A stretch of 64,000 nucleotides of DNA from Candidatus Thorarchaeota archaeon (GCA_048882325.1 JBHLRS010000001.1:64001-128000); one strand, 5' to 3'; shown: positions 13,357 through 64,000, counted from the first letter of the stretch. Numbers and translations: made by a program. Notes: generated from the sequence alone by a model not told the origin.

Positions 13357-13435
13357 AGTAACCACTCACAGTGGAAAATTCGGGTGATTTTCTCACATAA
13401 GTAGTCTGCGACTCGAACAAAATGATGACTCTGAG

Positions 13436-13477
13436 AAAAAAATACTACTACCGGAGGTGATCTTAGCATCCTCCGGT
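13436..13477 (-). terminator. Hairpin plus T-tract after ferritin
   Basis: ACCGGAGG (13450-13457) pairs with CCTCCGGT (13470-13477); a T run follows on the minus strand. Confidence 0.55.
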
Positions 13478-13495
13478 CATGTTCTTGAATACAAA

Positions 13496-23931: not shown

Positions 23932-23939
23932 AATATATG

Positions 23940-23970
23940 GCGGGCCTTGTGCCCGCTTTACTCTCTTTTT
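23940..23970 (+). terminator. Hairpin plus T-tract
   Basis: GCGGGC-CTTGT-GCCCGC then TTTACTCTCTTTTT. Confidence 0.6.
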
Positions 23971-23986
23971 CAAGCTCTGAGTCATG

Positions 23987-24385: not shown

Positions 24386-24526
24386 CTATTCTCGTTCCTG
24401 CCTGAGGACTCTCCTCACTTCACCAATTGTTTCCGCAGTTTAGACTAGTGACCTATGGGCAAATACTAGTAAAAGTCTTCGCTTTTCCAGAAGGCTAGGT
24501 TTCTAAGGTATATTCTTTTTCGTTCT

Positions 24527-25762: not shown

Positions 25763-25927
25763 ATTAGCACCTTTTTCATTGCTCAGTCTAAATCAGAGTT
25801 TGTGAAATATAAGGAAAGTTCGTCTAGTTCTTCTAATCATAAAACAGAATCTGGTAAAATGGGATAGAGAATACGACCATCCATACAGTAACTAAAGATA
25901 AATCAATGACATCAATTTCGTTTTACT

Positions 25928-26947
25928 ATGGACTCATCCGCCCTCTTAAGATATCTTCAATCAAAATTCACCGATCGTAACTCTCTACAAATCGTAAACT
26001 ACAAAGACATCACTAGCGGATGGGAAACTCAAATCTACGCATTCGATTTGAGGTGGGAAGTCAATCAAAAGGAAGAGAGCGAGCATCTTATTGTGAGGGT
26101 GTATGCTCCTGGAATCAGCGAGAAGACTGAACATGAAGCTAGAGTCATGAAGCAACTATCCACGATGGACTACCCTGTACCAATGGTACATATCACAGAA
26201 ACTGATGAGTCTCTACTCGGTAAACCCTTCATGATAATGGACAGAATAACTGGGAGTACTCTTGAAGACAAAATATCGGTGCCTAATGCTGACTTCTCAA
26301 AATGGTTGCGAGTTTTTAGTGAGTTGTTTGTTAAACTGCACAATCTTGACTGGACAGTCTTCCTTTCTGATCCTAACATCATACCTAAAGATGACCCTTA
26401 TTTCATAATCAACACAATGCTCTCAGACTATCGAGTCAAGATAACACAATATGATAAGGAGGAGCTCTTGCCTATTGTTGAGTGGCTTGAAACTAATGCG
26501 AATCGAGTGCCATGCTACAGGCCCTCTGTCACTCACGGCGATTTCCATCCAATGAACATCATGATTGATGACGATGAACTTCCATATGTGATTGATTGGG
26601 GCGCAGCTGGCGTGAGAGATTTTAGAATGGACCTTGCGTGGACATTACTACTTACTAGAGCATACTCGACTCAAGAGAATCATGATTTCATCCTCAAAGG
26701 GTACGAGGATGAGGTAGGGCATCAGATCAATGAAATCGAATATTTCGAAGTTCTTGCCATACTCCGTCGTCTGTTTGATGTACTAGTTTCTATGGATGAG
26801 GGAGCAACTTCGCGAGGAATGCGAGAAGGTGCAGTAGAACTAATTAGGGAACAAATGGGTCACGTCAAGGTCGTTTACTCTTTGCTTGTTGAGATGACTG
26901 AGATTCAAATTCCAGAAGTGGAATCTTGGATTGACAGCTTTCTCTAA
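25928..26947 (+). CDS. Aminoglycoside phosphotransferase/choline kinase family protein
   Basis: HGDFHPMN and IDWG motifs; GKPFMIMDRI. Confidence 0.88.
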   Translation: MDSSALLRYLQSKFTDRNSLQIVNYKDITSGWETQIYAFDLRWEVNQKEESEHLIVRVYAPGISEKTEHEARVMKQLSTMDYPVPMVHITETDESLLGKPFMIMDRITGSTLEDKISVPNADFSKWLRVFSELFVKLHNLDWTVFLSDPNIIPKDDPYFIINTMLSDYRVKITQYDKEELLPIVEWLETNANRVPCYRPSVTHGDFHPMNIMIDDDELPYVIDWGAAGVRDFRMDLAWTLLLTRAYSTQENHDFILKGYEDEVGHQINEIEYFEVLAILRRLFDVLVSMDEGATSRGMREGAVELIREQMGHVKVVYSLLVEMTEIQIPEVESWIDSFL

Positions 26948-50137: not shown

Positions 50138-50386
50138 TCTTGCTCCCTGCTTCTCTTATTTCCGACTGCTTCTTTAATAATGGCATCGACAAAATGGTTC
50201 CGGTTAATAATTCATGTCTTGAGTAAAATTTGTCCATAATCGAACACTGACACTTTTCATTTTGCAACTTACTGATCTAATTTTTTAACGTGTAGATTAC
50301 AGTTAGTCCATTATCAAATAAGCTTGAGTTAAAAGGAACAATTAAGAGGGTCTTTGAATCGATTTGAGAGCGACAGGGTGCAATTC

Positions 50387-51013
50387 TTGAGAACACGCAT
50401 TCTAGGACTCTCCGGAAGTCCGAGGACGAGCAGCAACACCGCGATACTTGTGGAAACAGCTCTCGATGCTGCAGAGAAAGCAGGTGCAGTAATAGAGTTT
50501 CTAGACTTGTCTGCACTCGATATTCGAATGTGTGAACATTGCAGTGAGTGCTCTCAAACTGAAAGGTGCAAACTTAATGATGACTTGAACAAAGTTGCTG
50601 ATAAGATGAGAGTTGCTGATGGCATCATCTTTGGCTCTCCAGACCACCATGCATCCGTGGCCGCACCTTTGAAAAATGTGATGGATCGTACAGGCCGTTT
50701 CATGAAGCTTGAGGGCAAGGTTGGTGCTAGCATTGTCGTTGGTCGTAGATCAGGTACTGACATCACAATGACTCAGATGTTGTTTTTCATGTTAGTCAAA
50801 GAGATGATTGTACCTGGTGGAGTACATTGGCCAATAGGTTTTGCATTGAATGCTGGAGACATTCGAGCTGATACTGAAGCTATTGCCATGGCAAAACAAA
50901 TGGGGACACGCATTACTCAACTTGCTACGAATTTAGTTAGAAATCCTGTGCCTTGGGCGCATGAACCAAGACCAACCGGACAAAAAGTCCGTTTTGGACA
51001 TGAGTGGCAATAA
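50387..51013 (+). CDS. Iron-sulfur flavoprotein / flavodoxin-family FMN reductase
   Basis: GLSGSPR..SNT, CEHCSECSQTERC, ADGIIFGSP; TTG start after GGGTG. Confidence 0.88.
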   Translation: MRTRILGLSGSPRTSSNTAILVETALDAAEKAGAVIEFLDLSALDIRMCEHCSECSQTERCKLNDDLNKVADKMRVADGIIFGSPDHHASVAAPLKNVMDRTGRFMKLEGKVGASIVVGRRSGTDITMTQMLFFMLVKEMIVPGGVHWPIGFALNAGDIRADTEAIAMAKQMGTRITQLATNLVRNPVPWAHEPRPTGQKVRFGHEWQ

Positions 51014-51400
51014 TCACGTCGTCGTGGACGCTTCATACTTACTCGGACAAGATGTCAATATTTTCGTAGCGTGTATGAGCGACGCTGACTGCAACTGACC
51101 AATGGCTACTATCTCCTGACCATCTATCAGATTCGGAGTATCTCCAAGTATAAGCACCGTGATTGTGTGATTCTCACCTTCCATCACCAATGTCACATTC
51201 TCTGATGTTGTTGCCAGTGAACCAGCTTGATATGCTCCCTTGACCTGAATGTTGCGACCCATGTACGGATCGGGATTTGTGACAACCTCATCAACTGCTA
51301 GATATGGATCTACGAATAGGTTCAGCATAGCAAATGCAACGAAACCAATTGTTGCAACCAAGATGATTGCTACAGCTGCCATTCGCGTTCTCTTCTTCAT
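51014..51400 (-). CDS. ccmE: Cytochrome c maturation heme chaperone CcmE (CxxxY type)
   Basis: N-terminal TM, OB-fold-like body, C-terminal CPSKY. Confidence 0.9.
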   Translation of the reverse strand: MKKRTRMAAVAIILVATIGFVAFAMLNLFVDPYLAVDEVVTNPDPYMGRNIQVKGAYQAGSLATTSENVTLVMEGENHTITVLILGDTPNLIDGQEIVAIGQLQSASLIHATKILTSCPSKYEASTTT

Positions 51401-51402
51401 TA

Positions 51403-51543
51403 CTACTGGTCTCCTTCTAGCTGTGAATCCACCATCTTGAGTTGCTTCTCTATTCCTATCATCCTCAATAAAAGATATGCTAGGAATACAAAGATGCCTC
51501 CCCAGAGGATAACGGCTACAATGAACAATTCAAATTGCTGCAT
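51403..51543 (-). CDS. ccmD: Heme exporter protein CcmD (46 aa, absent from the ORF track)
   Basis: Manual translation MQQFELFIVAVILWGGIFVFLAYLLLRMIGIEKQLKMVDSQLEGDQ; single TM plus charged tail; fills the ccmC-ccmE gap. Confidence 0.8.
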   Translation of the reverse strand: MQQFELFIVAVILWGGIFVFLAYLLLRMIGIEKQLKMVDSQLEGDQ

Positions 51544-51547
51544 GACG

Positions 51548-52216
51548 TTAACTCCTTTCCATTCTTATTCTCATCAATTTTTCTTGAGCTGAATCAATTT
51601 TGTATGACAAATCCACCATGATCAAAGCGATGAACGTAACTGCGATCATCGCAACGAACAAAGTCATCATATGTTCAACTTCCATTTGGAGCCCTGATGG
51701 CTCAATGACTATTGGGTGTAGAGTATCCCAAATTCGAATTGAAAGATAGCTCAATATTACCATTGGGAATGCTACAATTCCAAAAATTGAACCAAACTGA
51801 GCTCTGGACTCACGATCACCAACTGAGGCTCGATATGCTAGAATACACGCGTACGCCACCCACAGTATTAGAGTGGTTGTTTCTCGAGGATCCCAGTTCC
51901 AGTATGAATTCCAAGCTGCATTGGCCCACATCATTCCAGAAAGCAAGGTTATCGTTGTGAACAACAAGCCAAGCTTGATTGCTACTGCTCCAAGGATATC
52001 ATATTTCAAATCTCCTTTCCAGAGATACATTACACTGCAGAGTAATGTCCCCCCAAATAGTCCATATGCCACAAGTGCGGGTGCTACGTGCTGAAAGAAG
52101 ATTCGAACATTCTCTCCCAGCTGGACATCTGGTGGTGCGAAGATCCAAGTCATATAGACATACAAGAGTGCTATCGCTGCGGTGATTCCAAGAAAAATCA
52201 GCTGGGTTTTTCTCAC
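51548..52216 (-). CDS. ccmC: Heme exporter protein CcmC
   Basis: IFFQHV, WWD motif WANAAWNSYWNWDPRET, TLHP. Confidence 0.92.
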   Translation of the reverse strand: MRKTQLIFLGITAAIALLYVYMTWIFAPPDVQLGENVRIFFQHVAPALVAYGLFGGTLLCSVMYLWKGDLKYDILGAVAIKLGLLFTTITLLSGMMWANAAWNSYWNWDPRETTTLILWVAYACILAYRASVGDRESRAQFGSIFGIVAFPMVILSYLSIRIWDTLHPIVIEPSGLQMEVEHMMTLFVAMIAVTFIALIMVDLSYKIDSAQEKLMRIRMERS

Positions 52217-52294
52217 GGTTTTTCAACTCGAATTGTCGGCGGACAACACAGTTCGTAATATGAAGGTTTTGTTAACAGTGTTAACATCAAAGCT

Positions 52295-52993
52295 TCACGG
52301 TGAAAGTGCGAAGTGAAACACTGATGCTGATAGTGTCAACATTGCTATCAGATGTGCTAGTAGAATTTCGAAAATGAACAAAACTGTTAGACCCATCCCT
52401 AATACTAGTGCGCCTGTTCCAAGGACAGCAATTTTGGTGAGTTCGATTAACAACATCAGACCTGAGATTGCTGTTGGGAAGTATACCAAGGGAAAAATGG
52501 TCGACTTCGACTCTGATGGCATCGTCAAGGCTGATGCCATTGATCCCACTGCTGCCAAGTCCAATGTACCGATGAGAATAGTGGCCATCATTAGTGGGAG
52601 GTCATTGAATATAGAGAAACCAAACAATACCGAGATGATAGGAACCAGAAAAATCTCCACGAGTCCCATTAGTAAAAATCCATAGACTACCTTTCCTAGA
52701 TATACAGACCATGCTGGAATTGGAGCTGTGGCTAAACCTCGAAGTGTGCCTGTTTCTGCTTCTGAAAGGAATATAGGTGCAAATCCAAACATGCCTGTGA
52801 AGAATATGATGACCCAAAGCAAAGCGCTACCAACTTCTTGTGGCACTATTCCTCCTGTGACTACTGCAAAGGAAAAGGCTAGAACTGCAATCAATGCAAA
52901 GAGGAACATCGAGAACATTTCGAACTTCTTACGAAATTGAGTGAGAATGTCTTTCTTCGCGATTGCCAGTGCTGCACCTAGTCCTGATGTCAT
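52295..52993 (-). CDS. ccmB: Heme exporter protein CcmB
   Basis: 6 TM helices; KDI, LLWV, E.ETGTL, YLGK, FP motifs; located between ccmA and ccmC. Confidence 0.85.
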   Translation of the reverse strand: MTSGLGAALAIAKKDILTQFRKKFEMFSMFLFALIAVLAFSFAVVTGGIVPQEVGSALLWVIIFFTGMFGFAPIFLSEAETGTLRGLATAPIPAWSVYLGKVVYGFLLMGLVEIFLVPIISVLFGFSIFNDLPLMMATILIGTLDLAAVGSMASALTMPSESKSTIFPLVYFPTAISGLMLLIELTKIAVLGTGALVLGMGLTVLFIFEILLAHLIAMLTLSASVFHFALSP

Positions 52994-53002
52994 CCTTACA
53001 CC

Positions 53003-53680
53003 TCACAGAGATTGGTCAAATTCAGATATTGGACCTTGGCTTACAACCACACCCTTTCTAAGTGTCACATACTCATCACACAATGCTGCACCATATGCAA
53101 GATTGTGTGTTGTTACAATAGTCGTTCTTGCATTCCTATACTCATTCAGGTATTCCCAGAAGTCTTCAGTTGTGTCTTTATCCAGCCCACTGAAAGGCTC
53201 ATCCAGAAGCAACAATTCAGGATCGTGTATCAGACTTCGGACAATATCGAACCTTTTCTTCAGACCCGTTGAGAGATTCTTCACAGGTTCTTCAAGCCAT
53301 GTATTAATGGAAAATCGTGTGGTCAAATCCGCGACCTGAGATTCAAAAAACTCTGCTGCGAGCCCGTAGAGTTTCCCGTAGAACTTAAGATTCTCCAGAC
53401 CTGTCAGTTCCTCGTAGAGAAGCACTTTGTCACCTACCAGCCCGATTCTGCTTTTCACCTCTTCAGGCTCTTCCTGAGGATCAAATCCCATCACAGAGAT
53501 TTGCCCTCCATGAGGTCTCAGAAGGGTGGAGATGACTCGCATGAGCGTTGTCTTGCCCGCTCCATTGGATCCAAAGAGACCATGAACCCCTCCCTTCGAA
53601 AACCTGAGTGAAACTTTCCTTAATGCGACTCTGTAGCCATAGCGTCTTGTGAGTTCGTTTGTTTCTATGGCTACTGTCAC
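53003..53680 (-). CDS. ccmA: Heme ABC exporter ATP-binding protein CcmA
   Basis: GSNGAGKTT, LSTG, LLLLDEPFSGLD, H-loop; GTG start after AGGTGG. Confidence 0.85.
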   Translation of the reverse strand: MTVAIETNELTRRYGYRVALRKVSLRFSKGGVHGLFGSNGAGKTTLMRVISTLLRPHGGQISVMGFDPQEEPEEVKSRIGLVGDKVLLYEELTGLENLKFYGKLYGLAAEFFESQVADLTTRFSINTWLEEPVKNLSTGLKKRFDIVRSLIHDPELLLLDEPFSGLDKDTTEDFWEYLNEYRNARTTIVTTHNLAYGAALCDEYVTLRKGVVVSQGPISEFDQSL

Positions 53681-53787
53681 TAGTTGATCCACCTTTGATG
53701 TCAGCTGAACGCACTTGAAACCCTTATTTAATGTGCTGGATGAATGCCTCATGCTTTAACTTGGTTCAGCTGATGCTGAGGATGTTG

Positions 53788-55005
53788 TTACTCAAGTCCC
53801 ATCAAACTCATGAATAGGTCCTCAATATTGAGTACCTTGATATCCACTCCACGTTTTTTCACGGCATCAAGAAAGTTCAACTTACAGAACACACAGGATG
53901 AAACAACAGTTGTTGCTCCAGTTTCGAGGGCCTGATTTAACCTTCTCTCAGCCACATTGATCGCATTCTCGCCGAATCCAGCCTTGAATCCTCCTCCGGC
54001 TCCGCAACAAACAGAGTTTTGCCTGTTCCGCTCCATTTCAACGAAATTAATTCCAGGGATACTTTTTAGTATCTCTCTAGGTGGTTCAAAGATGCCAACA
54101 TGTCGGCCGAGATGGCAAGGATCGTGGTATGTTACTGTTTCGGGGTAATCCTTCTTCCACTCGAGCTCTCCTTTTTTCAGCTTGAGAGCCAAGAATTGTG
54201 TAAGATGTTGGGTAGAGAAGGGGAGAATACCATGTCTTTCTCTGTAATATCTGGGCCAATCTAAAGTTGTTGTCCGATAACATCCTGAGCATGAGAAGAT
54301 GACATGCTTGATACCTCTAGACTTCATTTGCTCAACATTATGAACGATGAACTTCTCAGCCTCGAGTGTTCCTAGCAGCTCCATCTCACCATCCTCTGAC
54401 TCCTCGTGAATCGGACGAACCACCTGTCCTGTTCTAATCAATGGGCTACAACAACAGTATTCATCAGCTCCAAGAATCTGAGGTTCAACTCCAAAGTAGT
54501 TGAGCATTCGAAGAGTCGCATCAGCAATCTCTGGTCTCTTGTACGATGCTGTGCATCCTACAAAATAACCCCACTCAGAATCTTCCGAGATTCTTGTATC
54601 TGGTTGGACCCAGTCACCTCGTTCCCTAGGGTTCTCTCCAAACACATTGTTGAATTTAAATGCCATATCACCCATGACATGCAATTTTCCATAGGGCCCC
54701 TTGCCCATCTGAACGAGTTTTTTCCGAACATCCTCGATTATTCTGACATATGGTACTTTGATAGGACACCTCTCGACACACTGTTCGCAGGTACTGCACG
54801 CATATACTGCTCGTATGAATCCTTCATCAACAGGTAGATTCTTCTCAACATATGATCGTAAAAGTCTAAGACGTCCTCCAGCGAAGTACGCTTCCGACTT
54901 AAACTCCTCATAACTAGTGCATGTCCATCTGCATGTCGAGCAATTACTACATAGGACAATCTGGTCAGGATCCACATCAAGCTCAGGTGTAAAGAATCGC
55001 GCCAT
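53788..55005 (-). CDS. Fe-S oxidoreductase, HdrD/GlpC/GlcF-like (2x[4Fe-4S] plus 2 CCG domains)
   Basis: CSNCSTCRWTC, CSTCEQCVERCP, GCT, CCCSP, CSGC, YHDPCHLGR, CCGAGGG, CVFC. Confidence 0.9.
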   Translation of the reverse strand: MARFFTPELDVDPDQIVLCSNCSTCRWTCTSYEEFKSEAYFAGGRLRLLRSYVEKNLPVDEGFIRAVYACSTCEQCVERCPIKVPYVRIIEDVRKKLVQMGKGPYGKLHVMGDMAFKFNNVFGENPRERGDWVQPDTRISEDSEWGYFVGCTASYKRPEIADATLRMLNYFGVEPQILGADEYCCCSPLIRTGQVVRPIHEESEDGEMELLGTLEAEKFIVHNVEQMKSRGIKHVIFSCSGCYRTTTLDWPRYYRERHGILPFSTQHLTQFLALKLKKGELEWKKDYPETVTYHDPCHLGRHVGIFEPPREILKSIPGINFVEMERNRQNSVCCGAGGGFKAGFGENAINVAERRLNQALETGATTVVSSCVFCKLNFLDAVKKRGVDIKVLNIEDLFMSLMGLE

Positions 55006-56487
55006 CTAGAAACTTCCCTCCTGGTATGATACTGGAATCTGTAGAATCTTCTTCGCTCTTCGGAGTAATGCCTGCAACCTCCGGAAGTTTCCATTCATTG
55101 TAAACATGAGATTCAATCGTGTGTATGACATGACACAATGTGTCAACTTGTCAGGATTCATTATTCCTTTCGGATCCCAAGTTTTACGAAGTTCCTTATA
55201 GCGCTTGTAATCTTCAGGTTGGTATTTCTTGATGTAGACGGTGTTCTGGAGCCCTAAAGTATAGAGCCTACCACCTCGTCGATACATCATTTTTACAAGT
55301 TTGTGAAGCATAGATTTTCCAGACATAAAATGCATCCAATGCCTGTGGTCTGAGGGAGCAAACACGCAAAGTCGGGCCATTGAAGAGCTACCAAGAACGC
55401 AATAGAAACAAGAATTGATGTGGTAGTTGCTTGCGATTTTGTACATCTTCCTTACGATTGGCTCAATATGCTGAATCGGAATCCAGAAATTCTGCATTGA
55501 CAGTGTGGGGACCTCGAGCTTCAGTTTCATCTCGACGATGTTTCTGTCTTCCCAATTCTTGTTGTAGTAATCCTGTTGCATCTCCTCTCCACCCGCAACC
55601 TCAAAAATACCGCGGGCAGTTTTCATTGATTCAGCTACTTCATCTGCGGGTCCGCCATATGTTACCATAACAAAGAACAGCCCCGATGTCCCCGGTGGTA
55701 GACCTCCTTGAATCCGCCACTCGTATTCAAGGTCCGTCAGTCTTAAGTAGACTGGTTGTGTTTTCGTCTTACTTAACCGGGAAAGAGCATCCACGGCTTT
55801 ATGCAGGTCGTCGAACGCAAACATAAAGCCCTGAATTTCTTCTGGTATCGGAATCACTTTCATCTTTATGGTTGTGACAACCCCAGCAATCCCAGAAGTT
55901 CCAAAGAATGGCTTCATGTCTTCTCCCGTTACCGTATCGATAGTGCCATCTGGTCTAACAACTTCCATCTCAAGCACATTTTCAATCATTGAACCATACT
56001 TCGGGGTTCCGACTCCAGCCGAACCACCAATTGCTAACCAACCAGCAAGGGTAGATGCCACACCACTCTGAGGTGCAGATGGTATTGCCAAGCCATGTTT
56101 GCTTAAATCATTGTTGAGAATCTCCCAAACAGCGCCTGCTTCTACTATTATCCACCCATCATCTTTGTTTACTTCTTTGAGTTTATCCATGCGTTTTGTG
56201 TCAATCACAATTCCGCCCCTTGTCGGACTTGCTGAACCATAGTAGCACGTCCCTCCACCTCTTGGAATGATGGGTATTTTCTTCTTTGAGGCGAATTGAA
56301 TAATTTGTGATACTTCTTCACTTGACTCTGGCCACGCTACATAGTCTGCAAGCCATTTCTTTTTCCATCTATAGTGATAATATGGGATTCCGGTTGTATC
56401 TCCACTTGCAGATAGACGCTCAGCAATCAGGTCACTAACCCATGGCACTTCGGAAAGTTTTGTGATTTGGTCTGTTGAATTCATCAT
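55006..56487 (-). CDS. FAD-binding oxidoreductase (PCMH/GlcD-like)
   Basis: PRGGGT, TLAGW, GTSGIAGVVT, WDPKGIMNP. Confidence 0.88.
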   Translation of the reverse strand: MMNSTDQITKLSEVPWVSDLIAERLSASGDTTGIPYYHYRWKKKWLADYVAWPESSEEVSQIIQFASKKKIPIIPRGGGTCYYGSASPTRGGIVIDTKRMDKLKEVNKDDGWIIVEAGAVWEILNNDLSKHGLAIPSAPQSGVASTLAGWLAIGGSAGVGTPKYGSMIENVLEMEVVRPDGTIDTVTGEDMKPFFGTSGIAGVVTTIKMKVIPIPEEIQGFMFAFDDLHKAVDALSRLSKTKTQPVYLRLTDLEYEWRIQGGLPPGTSGLFFVMVTYGGPADEVAESMKTARGIFEVAGGEEMQQDYYNKNWEDRNIVEMKLKLEVPTLSMQNFWIPIQHIEPIVRKMYKIASNYHINSCFYCVLGSSSMARLCVFAPSDHRHWMHFMSGKSMLHKLVKMMYRRGGRLYTLGLQNTVYIKKYQPEDYKRYKELRKTWDPKGIMNPDKLTHCVMSYTRLNLMFTMNGNFRRLQALLRRAKKILQIPVSYQEGSF

Positions 56488-56496
56488 TATTCACCT

Positions 56497-56907
56497 CTAG
56501 GCAATATATAGAAGATATCCCATGACAAAGACTATTGTCCAACATGTTGCAGCAGTCAGACCAGGTATTTGTGTTCGAATGCCTGATATGCCAGTAAGAA
56601 AGGCACCAACACCAGCCAAGTACCCAATCACACCTAAACCAATATGGATTAGATGAAACAGATCCGCGCTTCCTGATCTCAACACCGTGTCTGTAAGTGG
56701 GAGAATCGCTACGATATTGACTGATGTCAGTAACAAGGCCAGTCCTGCACATACTCCATGGACAAAGGTGTATTTCTCTTTAGAAATGTAATATAATGAA
56801 GTACCAATATAGAGGAGTATCAGTGCGGGAAGTCCAAGTATGACGCTCATGTGTACATTGCCGATTTGTAATGCCTGAAGTTGACTAGTTATCATAGTTG
56901 TAGTCAT
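56497..56907 (-). CDS. 4-TM membrane protein with intramembrane His residues (putative heme b binding)
   Basis: Four TM helices; FVHG and FHLIHIGLG; AGGAGGT SD. Confidence 0.55.
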   Translation of the reverse strand: MTTTMITSQLQALQIGNVHMSVILGLPALILLYIGTSLYYISKEKYTFVHGVCAGLALLLTSVNIVAILPLTDTVLRSGSADLFHLIHIGLGVIGYLAGVGAFLTGISGIRTQIPGLTAATCWTIVFVMGYLLYIA

Positions 56908-57059
56908 TCAGATACCTCCTTGAGTGAGAAATGATGTTTTGATGGCTTGCACGAAAGAAAAACAAGTTGCAGAAGGTCACCTCTTTCTGAAAATGGATAG
57001 AATAAGTATTGAATTGGTGCTTTCATTACATTCAAGCCCTGGTCACATCCAACATTCAT
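56904..57059 (-). CDS. Possible 51-aa small protein
   Basis: AGGAGGT upstream; open frame fills the whole gap; TGA overlaps the next ATG (ATGA). Confidence 0.3.
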   Translation of the reverse strand: MNVGCDQGLNVMKAPIQYLFYPFSERGDLLQLVFLSCKPSKHHFSLKEVSE

Positions 57060-57069
57060 TCTACCTCCT

Positions 57070-58788
57070 TTAATGGAAGATTTTCCTTCCTAGTCTAAGG
57101 AATGGTGTACCAATTGAAAGTACGACCGTTATTGGAATAAGATTAGCAAACTCTGAAACAGCATATCCAACAAGTAACCCTACAGCGAACCAGATGAGAA
57201 AGCTCGTTAGATCATTGACTACTATCCATGGAACATATGCCTGAAATATGGTTGGTACAAACAATCTTGCAACCCAGATGACGACTGGTGCAATTAATCC
57301 TGCAGCGAACATGATGAGCAGATTTATCCTAATACTCAGTACCAATGGTCCTGGAAATACTTTGTGTGAATTGAGATATCCCTTTTTGTCAGTTTTACGT
57401 TTCAGATTTGACATCTTAGCGTATTCTTCTTTACCATAGAAGCTCCTCGAATGTGCAGCGTTCCACATTCCGATAGAGTAAGCCCTGCCACCATGTTTCA
57501 ATCCTAGATTGATCACATCCAAGGAACGATACCAACCCATGAGGAATGATATTCTGCGACGTTCATCATCTGGGAACCATGTCAGAACTGCAACCTCTCC
57601 TCTGTCGGTTATTGCCCCTTCTAGGGCAAAATCCTCATCTTTGAAATGCTTGTTCATATGAGTGATATACTCATCAAGATTCTCTAGTGGAACGTATACC
57701 TCAGAAGGCGCTAGACTCGGTCCCAGTCTCTTAATCCGCATGGGATAGAACCGCTCACCCCATTCATGCTCTGCAACCTCCTTTGATTCAAGGGATCCAC
57801 TATACCGACTTACAATATGTTCAAGTTTTTCAATCTCGGTAGCTATTTCATCCTCGGTACCTTCGAAAGCGCACGAGATTACAAATTCACCAGTCGTTGG
57901 TGGAGCTTGATTCACCTCTCTTAGCATACCATAGAATTTGTCCGTTATGAAATGCAGATAGAAGGGTCTTGTAGCCTCAAGAATATCCTGAAGTGCTCCA
58001 ACCATTAGACTCTGGCTTCTAAAGGAGGATGTTGTTGGTCTGATGTTTCGAAGTGGAATGATTTTTAGGACGACTTTTGTGATCACACCAAGTGTACCAT
58101 TGCTGTCCAGAAAGAGCTGCGTTGAATCAGGATTATACATAAACTCGCCGACATCACCATAGAATGTATCTCCTCCACCAAAGTTCTTAGTTTCTTTTTC
58201 TATCATGAATTCCTCTTCGGACGTTTCCTTTGTTCGAATAACTCTACCATCTGGAAGTACTACTTCAAGGTCTACCACCTGTTCTGATATACCACCATAT
58301 TTTGTACTTCCGATTCCAGATCCGCCTGCTGCAACCCAACCTCCAACCGTGCTTGATGGAGCGCTGGAAGGATAAGCGGCTACGGTGACACCCTCATCCT
58401 CTAGCTCTTCAATCAGTTTTCCCCAGATTATTCCAGCACCTACCTCAATTGTCATTGTCTGTTTGTCAATGTTCAGGATCTGATTCATTCTGGTCATTTC
58501 AACAACAAGTCCACCTCTTGTAGGAAGTGCGCCCCCATATCCACTTGTCCCATGACCTCTGGGAACCACAGGGATATTATTCTCTTTGCAATAAACCAAC
58601 AGATTCGACACAACTTCAGTTGTTGTTGGTTGAGCTACGGCTTCCGCGTGCGGATTTAATACATCATTGACAATTCCAGGCAGTGCTGCAATATCACTTG
58701 AGTAAAGTTTGGTCATGTATTTCTCAGCTGAGAAATAGTCTTCACCTACGATGTCAGCCAAATTCTGAATGTGTTTCTTCCCAATCAT
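57070..58788 (-). CDS. FAD-binding oxidoreductase with C-terminal TM helices
   Basis: PRGHGTSGYGG, YPSSAPSSTVGGW, GTLGVITK, ERFYPMRIKRLGPS; hydrophobic C-terminus. Confidence 0.88.
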   Translation of the reverse strand: MIGKKHIQNLADIVGEDYFSAEKYMTKLYSSDIAALPGIVNDVLNPHAEAVAQPTTTEVVSNLLVYCKENNIPVVPRGHGTSGYGGALPTRGGLVVEMTRMNQILNIDKQTMTIEVGAGIIWGKLIEELEDEGVTVAAYPSSAPSSTVGGWVAAGGSGIGSTKYGGISEQVVDLEVVLPDGRVIRTKETSEEEFMIEKETKNFGGGDTFYGDVGEFMYNPDSTQLFLDSNGTLGVITKVVLKIIPLRNIRPTTSSFRSQSLMVGALQDILEATRPFYLHFITDKFYGMLREVNQAPPTTGEFVISCAFEGTEDEIATEIEKLEHIVSRYSGSLESKEVAEHEWGERFYPMRIKRLGPSLAPSEVYVPLENLDEYITHMNKHFKDEDFALEGAITDRGEVAVLTWFPDDERRRISFLMGWYRSLDVINLGLKHGGRAYSIGMWNAAHSRSFYGKEEYAKMSNLKRKTDKKGYLNSHKVFPGPLVLSIRINLLIMFAAGLIAPVVIWVARLFVPTIFQAYVPWIVVNDLTSFLIWFAVGLLVGYAVSEFANLIPITVVLSIGTPFLRLGRKIFH

Positions 58789-58799
58789 TCTAGCACCAC

Positions 58800-59978
58800 C
58801 TAGAGACCCAACGCCTCCACCACAATCTGAGACAGGTCTTTGAACTTGATCTTAGATTCGCGGTTTTCAATTCCATCATTAAGAGACATTGTACATGATG
58901 GACATTCACTCGCCAATATAGTCGCACCCGTCTTTTCAGCCTCCTCAATCCGTCTTGCTGAAACTCTAACTGACGCTACTGGATATGTTCCTTTGAGTAA
59001 TCCGCCACCACCACAACATCTAGCTTTGTTCCGATTGTGTTTCATCTCTTTCAATGTAAGGCCCGGAATTGCACTAAGAAGCTCGCGAGCTGGATTGTAG
59101 ATATTCTGATGTCTTCCCAATTCACAAGGATCGTGCCACACCACTTCATGTGGGTACTCTTTATCGAACTTGATCTTTCCTTCTTTCAGTAGCCTAAGTG
59201 CGAACTCAGAAAATGGAAGGAATTCGAGACCTTCAACCACCTCTTTCCCGAGGAGATGTGGATATTCTTCAGCAAATGCTCGATGACAGCCTGGACAATT
59301 GAATACAACTGTCTTGACACCGAGATTCTTTAGAGCTTTAATGTTGTGCATGGCCAGTTCTTTTCCTTTGTCAAAACCACCTGCAACGAAGTAAGGATTT
59401 CCACAACAGAATTCATCATCTCCTAGAATTGTGAAATCCACTCCTGCAGCATCCATTACCCTTATGGTGTTCTCACCCATGTGGGCAAGAGTACCTTTGA
59501 ATGAAATGTTACATCCTGCGAAATAAGCAACCTCTGCTTCAATACCAATCCTATCTTCCACGAGATCATCAACCATATCTGTCCAGAGGGTCCTGTCAGC
59601 TTGGTCCATCTCCATAATGTTCTGAGTCTGCTGTAGCGAATCATCAATGTAATTGACAATCTCTGGCCATTGATTTAGATTACCTATCTCTTGTCTTGTT
59701 AGTTGCCAAAATCTTAGGAGAGGAATGTTTGTCTGACAAATCTCTTGACAGGCTCCACATAGTGTACAATAGAAGATCCTCTGAGCGAAGTCGGGTGGAA
59801 TCGGTTTGTTTTCTTTGATAAGGGTTCTAAGTTGCTGTAACTTTCCTCTAGGTGATTGCGAGTCCCAAAGTGTGTCCAAATATGCTGGACAAACGAATGT
59901 ACAGAATCCACACTTTGCACACACTGTTGGCTCTATGTCGAGTCCTTCAAGTTTGTGAGGTTCGTATGGTTTTGTCAT
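58800..59978 (-). CDS. Fe-S oxidoreductase, HdrD/GlpC/GlcF-like
   Basis: CAKCGFCTFVCP, CTLCGACQEIC, CCGNP, CPGC, HDPCELGR, CCGGGG, CPSC. Confidence 0.9.
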   Translation of the reverse strand: MTKPYEPHKLEGLDIEPTVCAKCGFCTFVCPAYLDTLWDSQSPRGKLQQLRTLIKENKPIPPDFAQRIFYCTLCGACQEICQTNIPLLRFWQLTRQEIGNLNQWPEIVNYIDDSLQQTQNIMEMDQADRTLWTDMVDDLVEDRIGIEAEVAYFAGCNISFKGTLAHMGENTIRVMDAAGVDFTILGDDEFCCGNPYFVAGGFDKGKELAMHNIKALKNLGVKTVVFNCPGCHRAFAEEYPHLLGKEVVEGLEFLPFSEFALRLLKEGKIKFDKEYPHEVVWHDPCELGRHQNIYNPARELLSAIPGLTLKEMKHNRNKARCCGGGGLLKGTYPVASVRVSARRIEEAEKTGATILASECPSCTMSLNDGIENRESKIKFKDLSQIVVEALGL

Positions 59979-59993
59979 TACTGAATCTCCTTA

Positions 59994-60494
59994 TCACGGC
60001 CATGGTATTCCGATCCAGTCTAGGATTGGTTTTAGGATTGAGGTATCATAGACAAATATACCTCCTAATGCTCCCATGATCATCATCAAGACCCCACCAA
60101 AGATTACTAGAATCGCGTAGGGGAAATAGGTGGACGCCTTAACCCACACTCTGTCTCCAAGCCTTGCGCGAACAATAATCAGATAGACATAGATCTCCAT
60201 AGATACTACCGACCAGAGAATCTTGAACCGCATTATTGATGATTCAACCAAGTCGAGGAATGTGTACTCGTCCATGAAACCTGTTAATGCCCCAGCGAAC
60301 AGTCCTAGAAGACCGATGATACCCCCTACATATATGAATACATCAAATTGATGAAATATCTTCGATAATCTAGTCCCTGGTGTGTTTATGTTGTCCCTAA
60401 AGAGTATACGAAGTAAGAGATTTACCAAAGCCACAGCAGCTGTGGCAGTCAAAATTCCAGTATGAAAGTGTACGAAAACAGGATGAATCGCCAT
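59994..60494 (-). CDS. DUF2231-like 4-TM membrane protein
   Basis: N-terminal IHPVFVHF, ALTG, GALGG..VY. Confidence 0.65.
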   Translation of the reverse strand: MAIHPVFVHFHTGILTATAAVALVNLLLRILFRDNINTPGTRLSKIFHQFDVFIYVGGIIGLLGLFAGALTGFMDEYTFLDLVESSIMRFKILWSVVSMEIYVYLIIVRARLGDRVWVKASTYFPYAILVIFGGVLMMIMGALGGIFVYDTSILKPILDWIGIPWP

Positions 60495-60507
60495 TCATAT
60501 CACCTCT

Positions 60508-61086
60508 TCATTGACCTCTCCTGAATGCTAGGTATCCAAAGATTATCAGCAGCACTCCGGTGACAATAGGAACCCCAATCATCATCATTCTCCAAATTTC
60601 CACTCGATCCAATGGTGGGGGAGTTGTTGGCAAAGTACCAGGTTCGCCTGTTACATTGACTGCAACATCAAATGAATCTGAAAGAGCTCCTGCTGCTGCG
60701 GTCCAGATTCGAATTGTATAGGTGCCATTGGTAAATGGTGTAAAAGTTATCGCTACTGATATTTCTCCAGCAGCTCCATTAGTGTCATTTGTTGATCCGT
60801 CTTGGACTAGAGGTTCAGAAACCATGAAATAATCATTGTCAGCCCATCCACTCTTGATTGCGATATATTCAGCTCCATTTCCTGCTTCTATCTGAAGTGT
60901 AAAGGAGTCTCCAGTTTCCGCATCAACTGTGGAGTTTGTTGTAACTGTGAGTGTACCTGTGTTTGTATGACAATTTCCACACTCACTTGTGTAATCAGAA
61001 TTTGCCACAACTGAATTTGCTGCAGCAATAACCAAAACAAGAAAGCTCATGACTACAATGAGCTTCGTAGCGTGGTTCCGTTTCAT
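60508..61086 (-). CDS. Membrane-anchored monoheme c-type cytochrome with beta-sandwich domain
   Basis: Signal peptide, CGNCH shortly after the predicted cleavage site, beta-rich body, P/T linker, C-terminal TM plus RR; ccm genes nearby. Confidence 0.7.
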   Translation of the reverse strand: MKRNHATKLIVVMSFLVLVIAAANSVVANSDYTSECGNCHTNTGTLTVTTNSTVDAETGDSFTLQIEAGNGAEYIAIKSGWADNDYFMVSEPLVQDGSTNDTNGAAGEISVAITFTPFTNGTYTIRIWTAAAGALSDSFDVAVNVTGEPGTLPTTPPPLDRVEIWRMMMIGVPIVTGVLLIIFGYLAFRRGQ

Positions 61087-61282
61087 ATATTCGTCACCTA
61101 GACTTGGTTACATATTGCATCTATAGAACGATTCAAGGCATTATCCAAGTTTCGATTTTGAACATAAATCCCGTATAAGAGCATATTGGTAAACCATGTT
61201 AATAGTAATATTGCACACAATGGTGCATGTCAATTTTCTATAGTGCAACACAGTTTTGTAAGCTCATCAATCACTTCAATGT

Positions 61283-63004
61283 TTACCTACGAAAAATCTT
61301 GCTTAGAATTCTTAGTAGAGGAATACCTATTGAGAGTGACAGATTAAGTGACATTAGTCTAATGACAAATATACCAAAAAGACCAGCTCCCAATGATAGC
61401 CACACCAGTAATGGAATAGGACTTAATCCAACCAGACTCGATCCCAACAGTTGTGACAACCACTCCCAACCAATAAAATCCGGTCCAATCAGACCTGCAA
61501 ATAGCACAACAAAGAATCCAAGCAGAAATCCGAATACCATCGATGCACGACCAACCGTAACTCTTCCACCAAACACCTTCACAGGATTCATGAGATTGTC
61601 AGGGTCTAACCTCTTCTTCATAATCTTCAGGTCTTGATAGTTTTTACTACCATAGTACTTTTCCGCATGTCGCGAGTTCCAAAGACCAACAGCATATGGG
61701 AGACCGCCAAATCTCTCAGCTAAAGCTGCTATCCGAAAAGACCTGTACCACCCAATTGTGAATGAAAAACTCTTTCGCTCATCATCTAGTATCCAGACCA
61801 TGAAGGAGCTAGAATGATCATTGCTTATAGTTCCCTCAATTGCTACCTTGGATCTTCTTAATTCATCTTTAGTCTTCTCAAGTATTTCTGGAAGCTTGTT
61901 CAGTGGAGCAAGCATCTCAGCTGGTACAAGACTTGGTCCATGACGTTTAATTCTTAGTGGATAAAGTCGTTCATCCCAATAGAACCATGCTCTATCATCA
62001 TCTAACTTTATCCCGCCTTCTTTCTTTGTAATGTCTTCAATCTGCTCTATGTTCTCTTCATTTTGATAAATCGTATCGAGAAGTGCGCCTGTCAGAACAT
62101 AACTCCCTTGTTCCAATTCAAAACCATCAAGAGCTCTTAATTTTGCTGTGTAGTTGTCTGCAAGAAACCTCAGAAAGTACGGTTGAGTTTCTGAGATAAT
62201 CTTCGTGGCAGCGGTAATCAGTTCCCTCATCGATTCGAAAGAACATGCAAAGGGAACAAGCTGCAAATTAGGTATGGTCTTGAGTGTCACTTTGGTGATT
62301 ATTCCAAGCGTTCCATACGTCCCTGTAATAAGCTTTGACTCTTGTTCGGGAGTCCCTAAACCTGCATCAGTCAGTTCCTGACTAAGCCACTTGTTTCCCT
62401 TTTCCACCTCTTCTTGAAGATTATCAGTCTGAGGGTCTAACAAGACTTTTCCAAGTCTTACAACCTTGCCATTTGGAAGGACTGCCTCAATCCCTAGAAC
62501 CTGCTTTAGGATTTCCCCGTATCGTGTTGAACCAATACCAAGACCCCCACTTGCAACAAAACCTCCGACGGTGGCAGCAGTCGCACTTGAGGGATAAACT
62601 GGAAGAGTGAATCCCAGACGCTCAAGAAATTCAAGAAGGTTTCTCCAAGTAATTCCAGATTCCACTGTAATCGCTTGTTCAAATTCGTTGAAGTAGAGTA
62701 TATTCGACATACTCGACATATCAACACACAGCCCCCCTCTTGTCGGGATTGATCCGCCCCAGCCAGATGTTCCATTACCCCGGGGAACAATTGGTATTTT
62801 GTAATCAAGAGCATACCAGATTAATTTCTGAATCGAAAGGACATCAACGGGCTGTGTTACAACATCGAATCTTGGACTAACTATCTGATACGCAATACCT
62901 GGGAGACTTGTGACATCTTTCGAATAGAGTGTACGAGTCTCATATGTTGTTGAAACATTATCAGCTCCTACAATGTCTCCAATACGCATTTCATCTATCC
63001 TCAT
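61283..63004 (-). CDS. FAD-binding oxidoreductase with C-terminal TM helices (paralog of 57070..58788)
   Basis: PRGNGTSGWGG, YPSSATAATVGGF, GTYGTLGIITK, ERLYPLRIKRHGPS, LDPDNLMNP. Confidence 0.88.
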   Translation of the reverse strand: MRIDEMRIGDIVGADNVSTTYETRTLYSKDVTSLPGIAYQIVSPRFDVVTQPVDVLSIQKLIWYALDYKIPIVPRGNGTSGWGGSIPTRGGLCVDMSSMSNILYFNEFEQAITVESGITWRNLLEFLERLGFTLPVYPSSATAATVGGFVASGGLGIGSTRYGEILKQVLGIEAVLPNGKVVRLGKVLLDPQTDNLQEEVEKGNKWLSQELTDAGLGTPEQESKLITGTYGTLGIITKVTLKTIPNLQLVPFACSFESMRELITAATKIISETQPYFLRFLADNYTAKLRALDGFELEQGSYVLTGALLDTIYQNEENIEQIEDITKKEGGIKLDDDRAWFYWDERLYPLRIKRHGPSLVPAEMLAPLNKLPEILEKTKDELRRSKVAIEGTISNDHSSSFMVWILDDERKSFSFTIGWYRSFRIAALAERFGGLPYAVGLWNSRHAEKYYGSKNYQDLKIMKKRLDPDNLMNPVKVFGGRVTVGRASMVFGFLLGFFVVLFAGLIGPDFIGWEWLSQLLGSSLVGLSPIPLLVWLSLGAGLFGIFVIRLMSLNLSLSIGIPLLRILSKIFRR

Positions 63005-63999
63005 GAATCCCTATCCCCTCCTGCATTCTTTGGTAACAAGGATTCTGAAACAATCTGTGAGATGTCTTGTACTGTCGTTTGATAACCTGTAGTAAACATT
63101 GCAAGATTAAACGCAAGGATGCACCGTGGGCATTCCGTGATTATTCTTGATGCTGGTGTTACTGTTGCGTCTCTCAGGCGCATTTCTGCTATTCTTGATG
63201 ATAGAACGGGATCTACAACATCAAGCAGTCCATGAGACCCACAACATCGTGTACTCTGCCGGGACGGAGTCATCTCAACATTATATACGCCAGGAATTTT
63301 CTCTATGATTTCCCTAGGTTCTTCAGTTGCTTTCAGTACTCTTGCGGAGATACAGGGATCATGATAGGTCACTGTCACCATGGGTTGTTCTTCGAAATTG
63401 AGTCGTCCCTCTCGAACTAAGCGGCTGATGAACTGAGAAGCTGTCAATAGTTCAAGATTGCTCTCTTCCTTCAGTAACTTGCTATATTCTGACCAAGTCT
63501 GAATACATGATGGACAACTAAAGACAACTGTTTCCACTCCAAGACTATGAATCAGCTCCAAGTTTTTGGTAGCCATTTCATTAATTCCTTCGAAGTTCCC
63601 TGCCCAACCTAAGGGTGCTCCGCAACAGATCTCTTTGTCCCCGAGAAGTGTATAATCGACTTCCGCATATTCCATTATTTTAATCATAGATTTAGCAACA
63701 TCATGGAGCTGAGATTTGAGAGAAACATTACAACCTAGAAAATATGCTACTTTGGCTTGTTTCAAGACTCGATGACTAACTGTATCCTCAATCTCCTCCA
63801 TCCAGAGAAGTCGGTCAGCTGAACCCATCCACATGATGTCTCCTCTGGATTTTACTGATTCCAATACAAACCTCGCAGGTCGGGGCAATAACCCTCGCTC
63901 TCGAGCTTCAGCACGAGCAACCTCCCAGAATCTATCAAGACTGATACCTGTTGTGCAGACTGATGTGCAATGTTCACACAGGTTACAAAGGAAGATTTT
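63001..63999 (-). CDS. Fe-S oxidoreductase, HdrD/GlpC/GlcF-like (5'-partial)
   Basis: Frame open to the window edge: KIFLCNLCEHCTSVC; CCGAP, CPSC, YHDPC, CCGSHG, CPRC. Confidence 0.88.
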   Translation of the reverse strand, partial: KIFLCNLCEHCTSVCTTGISLDRFWEVARAEARERGLLPRPARFVLESVKSRGDIMWMGSADRLLWMEEIEDTVSHRVLKQAKVAYFLGCNVSLKSQLHDVAKSMIKIMEYAEVDYTLLGDKEICCGAPLGWAGNFEGINEMATKNLELIHSLGVETVVFSCPSCIQTWSEYSKLLKEESNLELLTASQFISRLVREGRLNFEEQPMVTVTYHDPCISARVLKATEEPREIIEKIPGVYNVEMTPSRQSTRCCGSHGLLDVVDPVLSSRIAEMRLRDATVTPASRIITECPRCILAFNLAMFTTGYQTTVQDISQIVSESLLPKNAGGDRDS

Positions 64000-64000
64000 A

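Follow-up and report, generated by a model that had tools for sequence, protein, structure and literature searches.

The genome of a Candidatus Thorarchaeota archaeon (GCA_048882325.1), a metagenome-assembled genome (MAG) of 3.6 Mb that is 93% complete, encodes a gene island of approximately 45 kb that combines flavoproteins, iron-sulfur proteins with CCG domains, histidine-bearing membrane proteins, exported candidate cytochromes c and a cytochrome c maturation (Ccm) system. The window analysed here, a stretch of 64,000 nucleotides (contig C1, JBHLRS010000001.1:64001-128000), holds the ccm-proximal third of this island. A search for matching sequencing runs listed DNA runs from two studies, four of which may be sources of the assembly, and no RNA run. 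The island is real and coherent, and we found no description of it in the literature searched; most subscription journals lay outside that search, and an earlier description is possible. As judged by sequence comparison, its membrane subunits, monohaem immunoglobulin (Ig)-fold proteins and flavoprotein clade belong to no described family. We slightly favour the interpretation that the encoded proteins form an outward chain, in which electrons would pass from a substrate to flavin adenine dinucleotide (FAD), iron-sulfur clusters, a membrane subunit, cytochromes and finally an external acceptor.

The part of the island inside the window comprises the following genes, given from the window end inwards (TM, transmembrane; ORF, open reading frame).

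63001..64000, minus strand, running past the window end: FeS-c, an HdrD/EtfD-type protein with two [4Fe-4S] motifs and two CCG domains (PF02754 CCG, E 2e-29)
61283..63004, minus strand: FAD-c, a type I VAO/GlcD-family flavoprotein of 573 residues (FAD_binding_4, E 7e-33; FAD-oxidase_C, E 2e-11)
60508..61086, minus strand: cytc192 (P0001), an exported candidate monohaem cytochrome c of 192 residues, recognized by its sequence features
59994..60494, minus strand: P0002, a DUF2231-like protein with four TM helices (PF09990, 23.1 bits, E 8e-5)
58800..59978, minus strand: FeS-b, a cytoplasmic HdrD/EtfD-type protein with two [4Fe-4S] motifs and two CCG domains (CCG, E 9e-34; Fer4_8)
57070..58788, minus strand: FAD-b, a type I flavoprotein of 572 residues (FAD_binding_4, E 1e-40)
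56497..56907, minus strand: 4TM (P0003), a His-bearing membrane protein of 136 residues and four TM helices, from an unnamed family
55006..56487, minus strand: FAD-a, a type II flavoprotein of 493 residues without a TM helix (FAD_binding_4, E 1e-34)
53788..55005, minus strand: FeS-a, an HdrD/EtfD-type protein with two [4Fe-4S] motifs and two CCG domains (CCG, E 2e-27)
53003..53752, minus strand: ccmA, an ABC ATPase (PF00005, E 6e-27; position before ccmB)
52295..52993, minus strand: ccmB (PF03379 CcmB, 71.5 bits against a cut-off of 24.9)
51548..52216, minus strand: ccmC, with the WWD motif AWNSYWNWDPRE (PF01578, 104.6 bits against a cut-off of 29.9)
51403..51543, minus strand: a ccmD-like ORF of 46 residues with a single TM helix, named by its position between ccmC and ccmE and its topology only
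51014..51400, minus strand: ccmE of the variant type with CPSKY (PF03100, 49.7 bits against a cut-off of 24.6)

ORF calls and Pfam searches agree with the initial annotation on 14 consecutive minus-strand genes (window 51014-64000) in the order FeS, FAD, cytochrome c, DUF2231-like, FeS, FAD, His-bearing 4-TM, FAD, FeS and ccmA to ccmE, and the run does continue past the window, for another ~35 kb. Intergenic gaps across it range from -4 to 196 bp. FAD-c and FeS-c overlap by 4 bp; the full FeS-c gene ends at C1:128209 and encodes a protein of 402 residues with CCG and Fer4_8 domains (two CxxCxxCxxxC motifs, two CCG domains and no signal peptide). The genes for cytc192, the DUF2231-like protein, FeS-b and FAD-b form a cassette with gaps of 11-15 bp that begins with the exported CxxCH protein. 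FeS-a is separated from FAD-a by 0 bp and from ccmA by 35 bp, and the 4TM-FAD-FeS trio thus leads directly into ccmA.

We compared the island ORFs with the matching contigs of eight genomes of the same genus. The order MutS, FMN reductase, ccmEDCBA, cassettes, multihaem cytochrome, ccmF, MenA and complex I-like operon is the same in all eight wherever a contig reaches, and the adjacency of ccm and oxidoreductase genes is consequently no peculiarity of this genome, a possibility that the initial annotation had left room for; it recurs, moreover, in a second Asgard family described below. Seven of the eight relatives have the whole cytc192-DUF2231-FeS-b-FAD-b cassette (the DUF2231-like gene was not found in G003), and four have the 4TM-FAD-a-FeS-a trio. 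All island ORFs are intact in the genome studied and nearly all are intact in the relatives, the exceptions being an amine-oxidase-like gene that is split in three and the DUF2231-like gene missing from one. Identity among orthologs is 50-90%, with the cofactor motifs preserved. Because the same order recurs in eight of eight same-genus contigs, and because ORFs with a signal peptide and CxxCH are concentrated in the island, the arrangement is not a chance one.

A marker survey of a sample of 400 Asgard genomes, among them 85 genomes in 16 genera from the same family, indicates that the island behaves as an accessory unit. CcmE was found in 37 of the 85 family genomes, the DUF2231-like protein in 34, the 4-TM domain in 37 and the multihaem cytochrome in 36. 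All four are confined to the same five genera, the remaining 11 lacking every one of them, and about a third of the genomes in the genus under study, including one that is 97% complete, lack all four. Since the four markers are present or absent together, the island has been gained or lost as a whole.

The remainder of the island lies beyond the window and includes the following genes.

C1:128306-129649: an HpnE/phytoene-desaturase-like amine-oxidase flavoprotein, 87-92% identical among relatives
C1:133802-135193, strand opposite to the cassettes: the multihaem cytochrome, 463 residues
C1:135351-137522, strand opposite to the cassettes: an anchored surface protein of 723 residues, between the multihaem cytochrome gene and ccmF
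C1:137544-139601, strand opposite to the cassettes: ccmF, 685 residues, 9.5 kb past the window end
C1:146357-150802: a surface protein of 1481 residues with PKD/Ig-like repeats and a C-terminal TM anchor
C1:151106-153046: a fusion of a type I GlcD-like flavoprotein with NuoB, 646 residues, ~23 kb past the window end (NuoB models above cut-off)

The multihaem cytochrome is the only multihaem protein recovered in a census of the whole genome. Among solved structures it is closest to OcwA of Thermincola potens (6I5B, E 3e-10), a terminal reductase with nine haems that is exposed on the cell surface of this bacterium, which has no outer membrane, and that reduces iron oxides, nitrite and hydroxylamine; matches to NrfA and ONR have E values of 1e-7 to 1e-6, and the Pfam families matched are PF13435 and PF02335. 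The similarity to OcwA, a member of the NrfA/c554/MccA superfamily, extends from sequence homology to nine motif positions that are kept in eight orthologs and follow the same order as in OcwA. Seven of these positions are CxxCH. The first site alternates between C-X2-C-H and C-X4-C-H, as does that of cytc192, and the ninth, C-X4/5-C-H, falls at the His/Met-ligated ninth haem of OcwA. An invariant CMHCM occupies the fifth site, which in OcwA is the CxxCH of the second active-site haem. NrfA has CxxCK at this position, and we know of no described haem site of the CxxCM type. Besides the replacement of two OcwA sites by CMHCM and C-X4/5-C-H, the Thorarchaeal protein differs from OcwA in having TM helices at both ends, and its gene lies outside the window.

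Proteins with a signal peptide and a CxxCH motif at residues 33-38 are few: the 3.6-Mb genome has only four such ORFs, paralogs of one another, of which three are in the island; the fourth is on contig C52, and all other recognizable c-type cytochrome candidates are in the island. The search for further CxxCH proteins suggested by the initial annotation thus yielded three more paralogs of cytc192 and the multihaem cytochrome, from the same island or family. Cytc192 itself begins with a signal peptide, reads CGNCH at residue 36 and continues through an Ig-like body and a Thr/Pro stalk to a C-terminal TM anchor; on the basis of these features it is a candidate monohaem cytochrome c. Its orthologs have either C-X2-C-H or C-X4-C-H, with both cysteines and the histidine always kept. 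We found 48 homologs, which carry Thorarchaeota or other Asgard MAG labels where they are named and are all annotated as hypothetical. Searches of Pfam with cytc192 gave no cytochrome family, only sub-threshold Ig-like matches. The 1481-residue surface protein starts with a signal peptide and CNACH, has relatives with open frames of 770-1426 residues and the same head, and may be a haem-tipped stalk or an S-layer-type protein.

Haem attachment to these exported proteins would fall to a cytochrome c maturation system of the System I type. CcmA, CcmB and CcmC are encoded together, the CcmC motif reading WNSYWNWDPRE, and CcmE ends in CPSKY, a CxxxY-type terminus in which cysteine replaces the haem-binding histidine. 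CcmF, whose absence from the genome would have spoken against the initial annotation, is encoded in the island; it matches PF01578 with 87 bits and the CcmF/NrfE models with 164-165 bits, below their cut-offs of 569 and 927. We found no CcmH (PF03918) in the genome, which is 93% complete, and the 46-residue ccmD-like ORF matches no Pfam family. A CcdA/DsbD-type gene is present on another contig. This complement resembles a variant System I that reportedly occurs in archaea and sulfate reducers, with a CxxxY-type CcmE and without CcmH, in its CcmA, CcmB and WWD-bearing CcmC, its CPSKY CcmE, its single CcmF nearby and the lack of CcmH in the genome. It differs in that the Thorarchaeal ccm genes are embedded in, and apparently co-transcribed with, flavoprotein/CCG cassettes, and in that the host does not synthesize haem. 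Contig C89 (3 kb) carries a further ccmC-ccmE-FMN reductase set (1-2340), which we rejected as a true duplication: in the one stretch that can be aligned, nucleotide identity to the C1 copy is only ~79%, and the contig probably comes from a related species and was binned into this MAG by mistake.

The cytoplasmic side of the island is built from repeated pairs of a flavoprotein and an iron-sulfur protein. There are three such cassettes in the window and four in the island, and a fifth flavoprotein is the one fused to NuoB. The fourth pair, FAD-d and FeS-d, lies next to cytc399, a CxxCH paralog of 399 residues, in an operon that the amine-oxidase-like flavoprotein gene closes. All three FAD proteins of the window have FAD_binding_4 and FAD-oxidase_C domains, and the flavoproteins match mouse LDHD (8JDB) over their full length with E values from 3e-29 (FAD-b) to 4e-28. 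Two types can be distinguished. Type I comprises FAD-b, FAD-c and the NuoB fusion, which share 33-37% identity and bear either TM helices or NuoB; type II, FAD-a and FAD-d with 33% identity, partners the 4-TM proteins. The initial description of these flavoproteins needs the correction that two of the three in the window have two or three C-terminal TM helices (residues 477-556 in FAD-b, about 489-548 in FAD-c).

In domains and in the GlcF/HdrD-like iron-sulfur partner, the flavoproteins resemble GlcDEF, LDHD, D2HGDH and LctD. They are, however, not ordinary GlcD or Dld proteins: when FAD-a is aligned to LDHD, GHVGDGNFH is replaced by VLGSSSMAR and EHGIG by YTLG, and the type I proteins have TM helices or a fused NuoB that those enzymes lack. 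Scores against the glcD model are 122-156 bits, with a cut-off of 568. Because the metal motifs are absent, the names lactate dehydrogenase and glycolate dehydrogenase are unjustified, and we rejected them.

All four iron-sulfur proteins carry two CxxCxxCxxxC motifs ahead of two CCG domains, and the three in the window have no signal peptide. Among solved structures FeS-b is closest to mycobacterial EtfD (9OJN, EtfD residues 401-724, E 8e-36), and HdrB is another solved relative. Models for TfrB, LdhH, GlpC, TmcB, HmcF and DsrK match the iron-sulfur proteins, all below cut-off (FeS-a, for example, scores 193 bits against a TfrB-like model with a cut-off of 385). As none of the proteins reaches an NCBIfam equivalog cut-off, we give them no specific enzyme name. 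The structure of EtfD reveals a single wire made up of CCG clusters, two [4Fe-4S] clusters, a haem b and menaquinone (PMC13083937). EtfD (Rv0338c/MSMEG_0690) and Methanosarcina HdrDE share with the island proteins a cytoplasmic unit with two [4Fe-4S] motifs and two CCG domains; as in the island, the unit is fed by a flavoprotein and seated on a His-bearing membrane part. In contrast to these enzymes, the Thorarchaeal iron-sulfur unit is a separate soluble protein, the flavoprotein is of the VAO/GlcD family and not an electron transfer flavoprotein (ETF), and the membrane partner is either a four-helix protein of an unnamed family or DUF2231-like, not of the five-helix NarI/HdrE type; one of these partners is fused to an exported CxxCH domain.

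That fusion protein, cytc399, links the membrane proteins to the exported ones. Its last 135 residues, the C-terminal domain, align with the free 4TM protein, and this homology is, as an inference from sequence, the strongest argument for a conduit of b- and c-type haems. The four histidines of 4TM, His19, His50, His85 and His88, do not vary in any of the 11 sequences compared; the first two open TM1 and TM2, and the other two form an HxxH where TM3 begins. The pattern is kept in distant relatives of the family. In cytc399, Cys35, Cys38, His39 and five membrane histidines are invariant among 30 sequences of 46-74% identity, the fifth histidine lying at the inner end of TM3. The AlphaFold2 (AF2) model of cytc399 (mean confidence, pLDDT, 82) has two Ig/FN3-like beta-sandwiches followed by a four-helix TM bundle. 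TM1 starts at the outer face, because the exodomain must be outside, and in the model His269 and His345/348 then lie close to the outer face, with His300 and His366 close to the inner one, a layout that could accommodate two haems. The 18 residues between the TM3 histidines equal the spacing of the two haem ligands on one helix of NarI. In Geobacter, CbcL joins a dihaem-b membrane domain to a multihaem c domain and serves as a quinol oxidase in extracellular electron transfer. Cytc399 likewise joins a His-rich helical membrane domain to an outward-facing, putative haem c domain in one polypeptide, but it has no sequence relationship to CbcL, has one haem site on an Ig-fold body and not nine, and its gene is directly followed by a flavoprotein/CCG pair.

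The 4-TM domain is rare: a profile search of 1.84 billion proteins gave 56 representatives, mostly of ~290 residues with the domain at the C-terminus. The Atlas neighbours of P0003, DUF420, cytochrome b561 and DUF4079, have scores below 0.9 (~0.8 for b561 and DUF4079) and are leads only. P0002, the second kind of membrane protein, was initially called DUF2231-like. Its PF09990 match is below the cut-off of 26.4, yet covers profile positions 3-134 of 139, and a distant member of the family is the probable assignment from sequence. The nearest named Atlas clusters carry DUF2231 (0.84-0.86, again leads only), and the top match has no common Pfam family. His4, His9, His11 and His48 are invariant; in the predicted N-out topology, the HPxFxHFH motif is on the outer face and one histidine is at the inner side. 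The AF2 model of P0002 has four long helices (pLDDT 71), and its best fold matches, none of them significant, are a mycobacterial CIII2CIV2 subunit of four to five helices (TM-score 0.54) and, at E ~1, STEAP and cytochrome b561. A relationship between the 4-TM and DUF2231-like families was considered and rejected (hhalign probability 0.1%). Haem b in either kind of membrane protein is suggested by the invariant histidines only, which are a necessary and not a sufficient sign of it.

Outside the Thorarchaeal family, the 4-TM domain occurs in 37 of 135 genomes of a second Asgard family (f9) and in 6 of 14 genomes of a third (f26). Seven loci from these two families all have the order 4TM-FAD-FeS, with an exodomain or extra TM helices preceding the 4-TM domain, which is the order found twice in the island (4TM-FAD-a-FeS-a and cytc399-FAD-d-FeS-d). 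In f9, where Ccm was found in 29 of 135 genomes, the trio directly adjoins ccmF, ccmAB and ccmCE in five of five loci examined, and the 4-TM gene lies within 4-10 kb of the CcmE gene on the same contig in about two dozen genomes. The one-cysteine head of the f9 exodomain, H-x2-4-C-H, is also found on two small, anchored Ig-fold proteins encoded across ccm. Exported Ig-fold proteins with this head, one of them fused to the 4-TM domain ahead of a FAD/FeS pair, thus flank ccmC/E, ccmA/B and ccmF (positions 6752-8071 and 13038-13916 of locus L042, and likewise in L043, L044, L046 and L047). As no homolog of the multihaem cytochrome was found in any of the 135 f9 genomes, these Ig-fold proteins are the only exported candidates seen beside ccm in the f9 loci examined. 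On sequence grounds this context ties the Ig-fold protein family to haem attachment, even though the site is unusual. AsnC-like genes beside f9 ccm were rejected as the haem-synthesis enzymes AhbA/B, Pfam showing only AsnC-type helix-turn-helix and ligand domains.

From the gene content and order, their conservation and co-occurrence, the conserved motifs and the predicted topology, we infer the cofactors of the membrane and Ig-fold proteins, the contacts between subunits, the direction of electron flow, the substrate and the acceptor. On the cytoplasmic side, the repeated cassettes would each consist of a VAO/GlcD flavoprotein without a metal site and an HdrD/EtfD-type protein with two [4Fe-4S] motifs and two CCG domains, anchored to the membrane either by TM helices of the flavoprotein or by small His-rich four-helix proteins, namely the new family, free or fused to an exodomain, and the DUF2231-like protein. 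On the outer side there would be anchored Ig-fold proteins with a single C-X2/4-C-H site and the OcwA-like cytochrome with nine sites, both loaded with haem by the variant System I of the island (CcmABC(D)E with CxxxY, CcmF, no CcmH). Electrons would move from a cytoplasmic substrate to FAD, through the CCG and [4Fe-4S] clusters to a membrane subunit with haem b and/or menaquinone, and from there through monohaem cytochrome c to the multihaem cytochrome and an external acceptor, for which minerals, humic quinones, partner cells, and nitrite or hydroxylamine are candidates. The logic would be that of DsrMKJOP, TmcABCD and HmcABCDEF, with cytochrome c outside, a haem-b-type membrane subunit (here predicted from sequence) and an HdrD-like CCG protein inside, and the DsrK, TmcB and HmcF models do match the island iron-sulfur proteins, if below cut-off. 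The difference is that no membrane or cytochrome subunit is homologous, none being of the NrfD/NarI type, and that a flavoprotein is added on the inside.

The initial annotation had proposed a path from the flavoproteins through intramembrane haems to an outward-facing cytochrome c. That the parts form one conserved unit, including a fusion of a membrane domain to an exported domain, is in keeping with this proposal, but haem b in the membrane is indicated by histidines only, and the path may instead run via menaquinone, since MenA is in the island. Still more tentatively, and with the balance somewhat against it, the island could represent an Asgard-specific transmembrane conduit, in which the rare His-rich 4-TM family always precedes a metal-site-less flavoprotein and an HdrD-like protein and an exodomain, often fused to the membrane protein, carries a haem c site (CxxCH in Thorarchaeota, HxxCH in the Loki-type family) loaded by System I; the Thorarchaeal island would then operate on scavenged haem and quinone head group and end in an OcwA-like surface reductase. 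On this reading it would be the terminal sink that the Asgard complex I-like/menaquinone chain has been missing, and electrons could be passed directly to minerals or syntrophic partners.

Several findings weigh against an outward respiratory chain of this kind. All five flavoprotein paralogs lack the GHxGDGNxH and EHG metal/substrate motifs, and because these are the catalytic metal motifs of the enzymes they resemble, oxidation of a substrate is an assumption. A fifth histidine, with which a second haem could be paired, is missing from the free 4-TM protein. No usable Pfam match to the 4-TM family was found at E <= 10, the best being Cytochrom_B561 at E 7.5 for one of 11 members; a fold search with the cytc399 model returned only Ig/FN3 sandwiches and generic four-helix bundles (Z about 10), and the P0002 model had no match in the PDB at E <= 0.001 and none below E 0.3. 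The one-cysteine head in f9 departs from the classical substrates of System I. About half of the family, near-complete genomes included, lacks the island, which is therefore not part of core metabolism. Finally, this genome has no HemB, and of 86 family genomes only one, a MAG of 670 contigs, gave a match; neither MqnA/D nor a MenB above cut-off was found in the genome. System I and cytochrome candidates nevertheless occur in about half of the family. Because HemB is missing, haem must be scavenged, and, given that MqnA/D and MenB were not found either, haem and the quinone head group would both have to be imported if the system works.

The last point could mean that the island is a decaying relic in a lineage that makes neither haem nor the naphthoquinone head group. 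We regard this as very improbable, considering that the ORFs are intact here and almost all intact in eight relatives, that orthologs retain their cofactor motifs at 50-90% identity, and that haem-auxotrophic bacteria such as Haemophilus influenzae keep Ccm. Nor do we think it likely, although the chance is slightly better, that the CxxCH Ig-fold proteins are surface or S-layer-type proteins with a metal-binding or disulfide head, leaving the multihaem cytochrome as the sole client of System I. Their bodies are ordinary Ig/FN3-like sandwiches that match no Pfam cytochrome family, one paralog is a 1481-residue protein full of PKD/Ig repeats, and the relatives in the other family have a single-cysteine H-x-x-C-H. 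The C...CH head is, however, invariant in 30 sequences, the two spacings between which it alternates are those known from haem c sites, and the multihaem cytochrome shows the same alternation at its first site. In f9, where no homolog of the multihaem cytochrome was detected, these proteins are the only exported candidates seen beside ccm.

A different question is whether the cassettes serve the cytochromes at all, or are cytoplasmic or quinone-linked enzymes with which ccm and cytochrome genes were merely co-inherited. The trio occurs in f26 with no ccm genes within the ~20 kb examined, it is missing from four of the eight relatives that keep ccm, and the island MenA would permit a purely quinone-based role like that of EtfD. 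We nevertheless judge a lack of functional connection to be unlikely, as one tightly spaced cassette begins with an exported CxxCH gene, the membrane subunit of another is fused to a CxxCH exodomain, the trio adjoins ccm in a second Asgard family, and all island markers are gained and lost jointly at the genus level. The same hardware might also run inward, taking electrons from a partner, reduced humics or Fe(II) at the surface to CCG proteins that reduce a cytoplasmic disulfide or other acceptor, as in HdrDE and DsrMK. Heterodisulfide reductases have their catalytic sites in CCG domains, HdrB is one of the solved relatives, the DsrK, TmcB and HmcF models match, and with flavoproteins lacking the dehydrogenase metal site nothing fixes the direction. 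Inward flow seems improbable to us because each CCG protein is paired with a VAO/GlcD flavoprotein, as is typical of substrate-oxidizing enzymes (GlcDEF, LDH-type enzymes, EtfD), because one flavoprotein paralog takes the place of the input module of a complex I-like enzyme, and because the organisms are described in the literature as fermenters of organic matter that need electron sinks. Outward flow is the reading that we retain.

The island also encodes a GGR-family reductase, a polyprenyl synthase and MenA (TIGR00751, 129 bits against a cut-off of 102), and the presence of MenA without MqnA/D or an above-cut-off MenB points to scavenging of a naphthoquinone precursor. The amine-oxidase-like flavoprotein may act on an isoprenoid or quinone tail. 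The flavoprotein-NuoB fusion, which is 87-88% identical in the three relatives whose loci reach it (G017, G005 and G004), is the first gene of a complex I-like operon. Pfam confirmed NuoA, J, C, D, H and an antiporter-like subunit there, no NuoEFG was seen, and the fused flavoprotein appears to replace the NADH input module. Elsewhere in the genome we found no cytochrome b, NarI/HdrE, NrfD, haem-copper oxidase (COX1) or cytochrome bd, and judging by sequence the island encodes the only recognizable quinol-oxidizing or haem enzymes. Two PNPOx-like genes and a fifth CCG protein complete the set, together with the conserved 723-residue surface protein, which is exported, has a C-terminal TM anchor and an Arg-rich tail, and matches families only in a faint hint of an (alpha/alpha)6 barrel.

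At its ccm end the island is followed in the window by two genes.

50354..51013, plus strand: an NADPH-dependent flavin mononucleotide (FMN) reductase-like gene, convergent with ccmE (PF03358, E 3e-30)
47537-50137, minus strand: a bacterial-type, full-length MutS of 866 residues with all five MutS domains

MutS marks the island boundary and is conserved in every relative examined. It is uncertain whether the FMN reductase-like gene is part of the system; it directly adjoins ccmE in six of the seven relatives that reach ccmE and lies ~10 kb away in G009. In that genome (contig C3, ~17400-26600), a second complex I/Mrp-like set, ~24-43% identical to the island Nuo genes, separates ccmE from the FMN reductase gene.

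Thorarchaeota and most other Asgard archaea have been modelled as fermenters or acetogens whose electrons leave as hydrogen or formate. No multihaem cytochromes were reported in the paper on Helarchaeota, and in related Asgard lineages the acceptor of a complex I-like (Nuo)/menaquinone chain has been described as 'unidentified' (PMC9723677). If the outward chain is correct, the island would let Thorarchaeota discharge electrons through a respiration-like outlet or connect them electrically, and directly, to partners. The His-rich 4-TM family, the Ig-fold family of putative monohaem cytochromes, the flavoproteins, one of them fused to NuoB, and the nine-site cytochrome with CxxCM are new objects for study. 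As haem and the quinone head group apparently have to be imported, adding haemin and a naphthoquinone precursor suggests itself for cultivation. Such an outlet would bear on the cycling of carbon and metals in sediments and on models of eukaryotic origin that are based on syntrophy.

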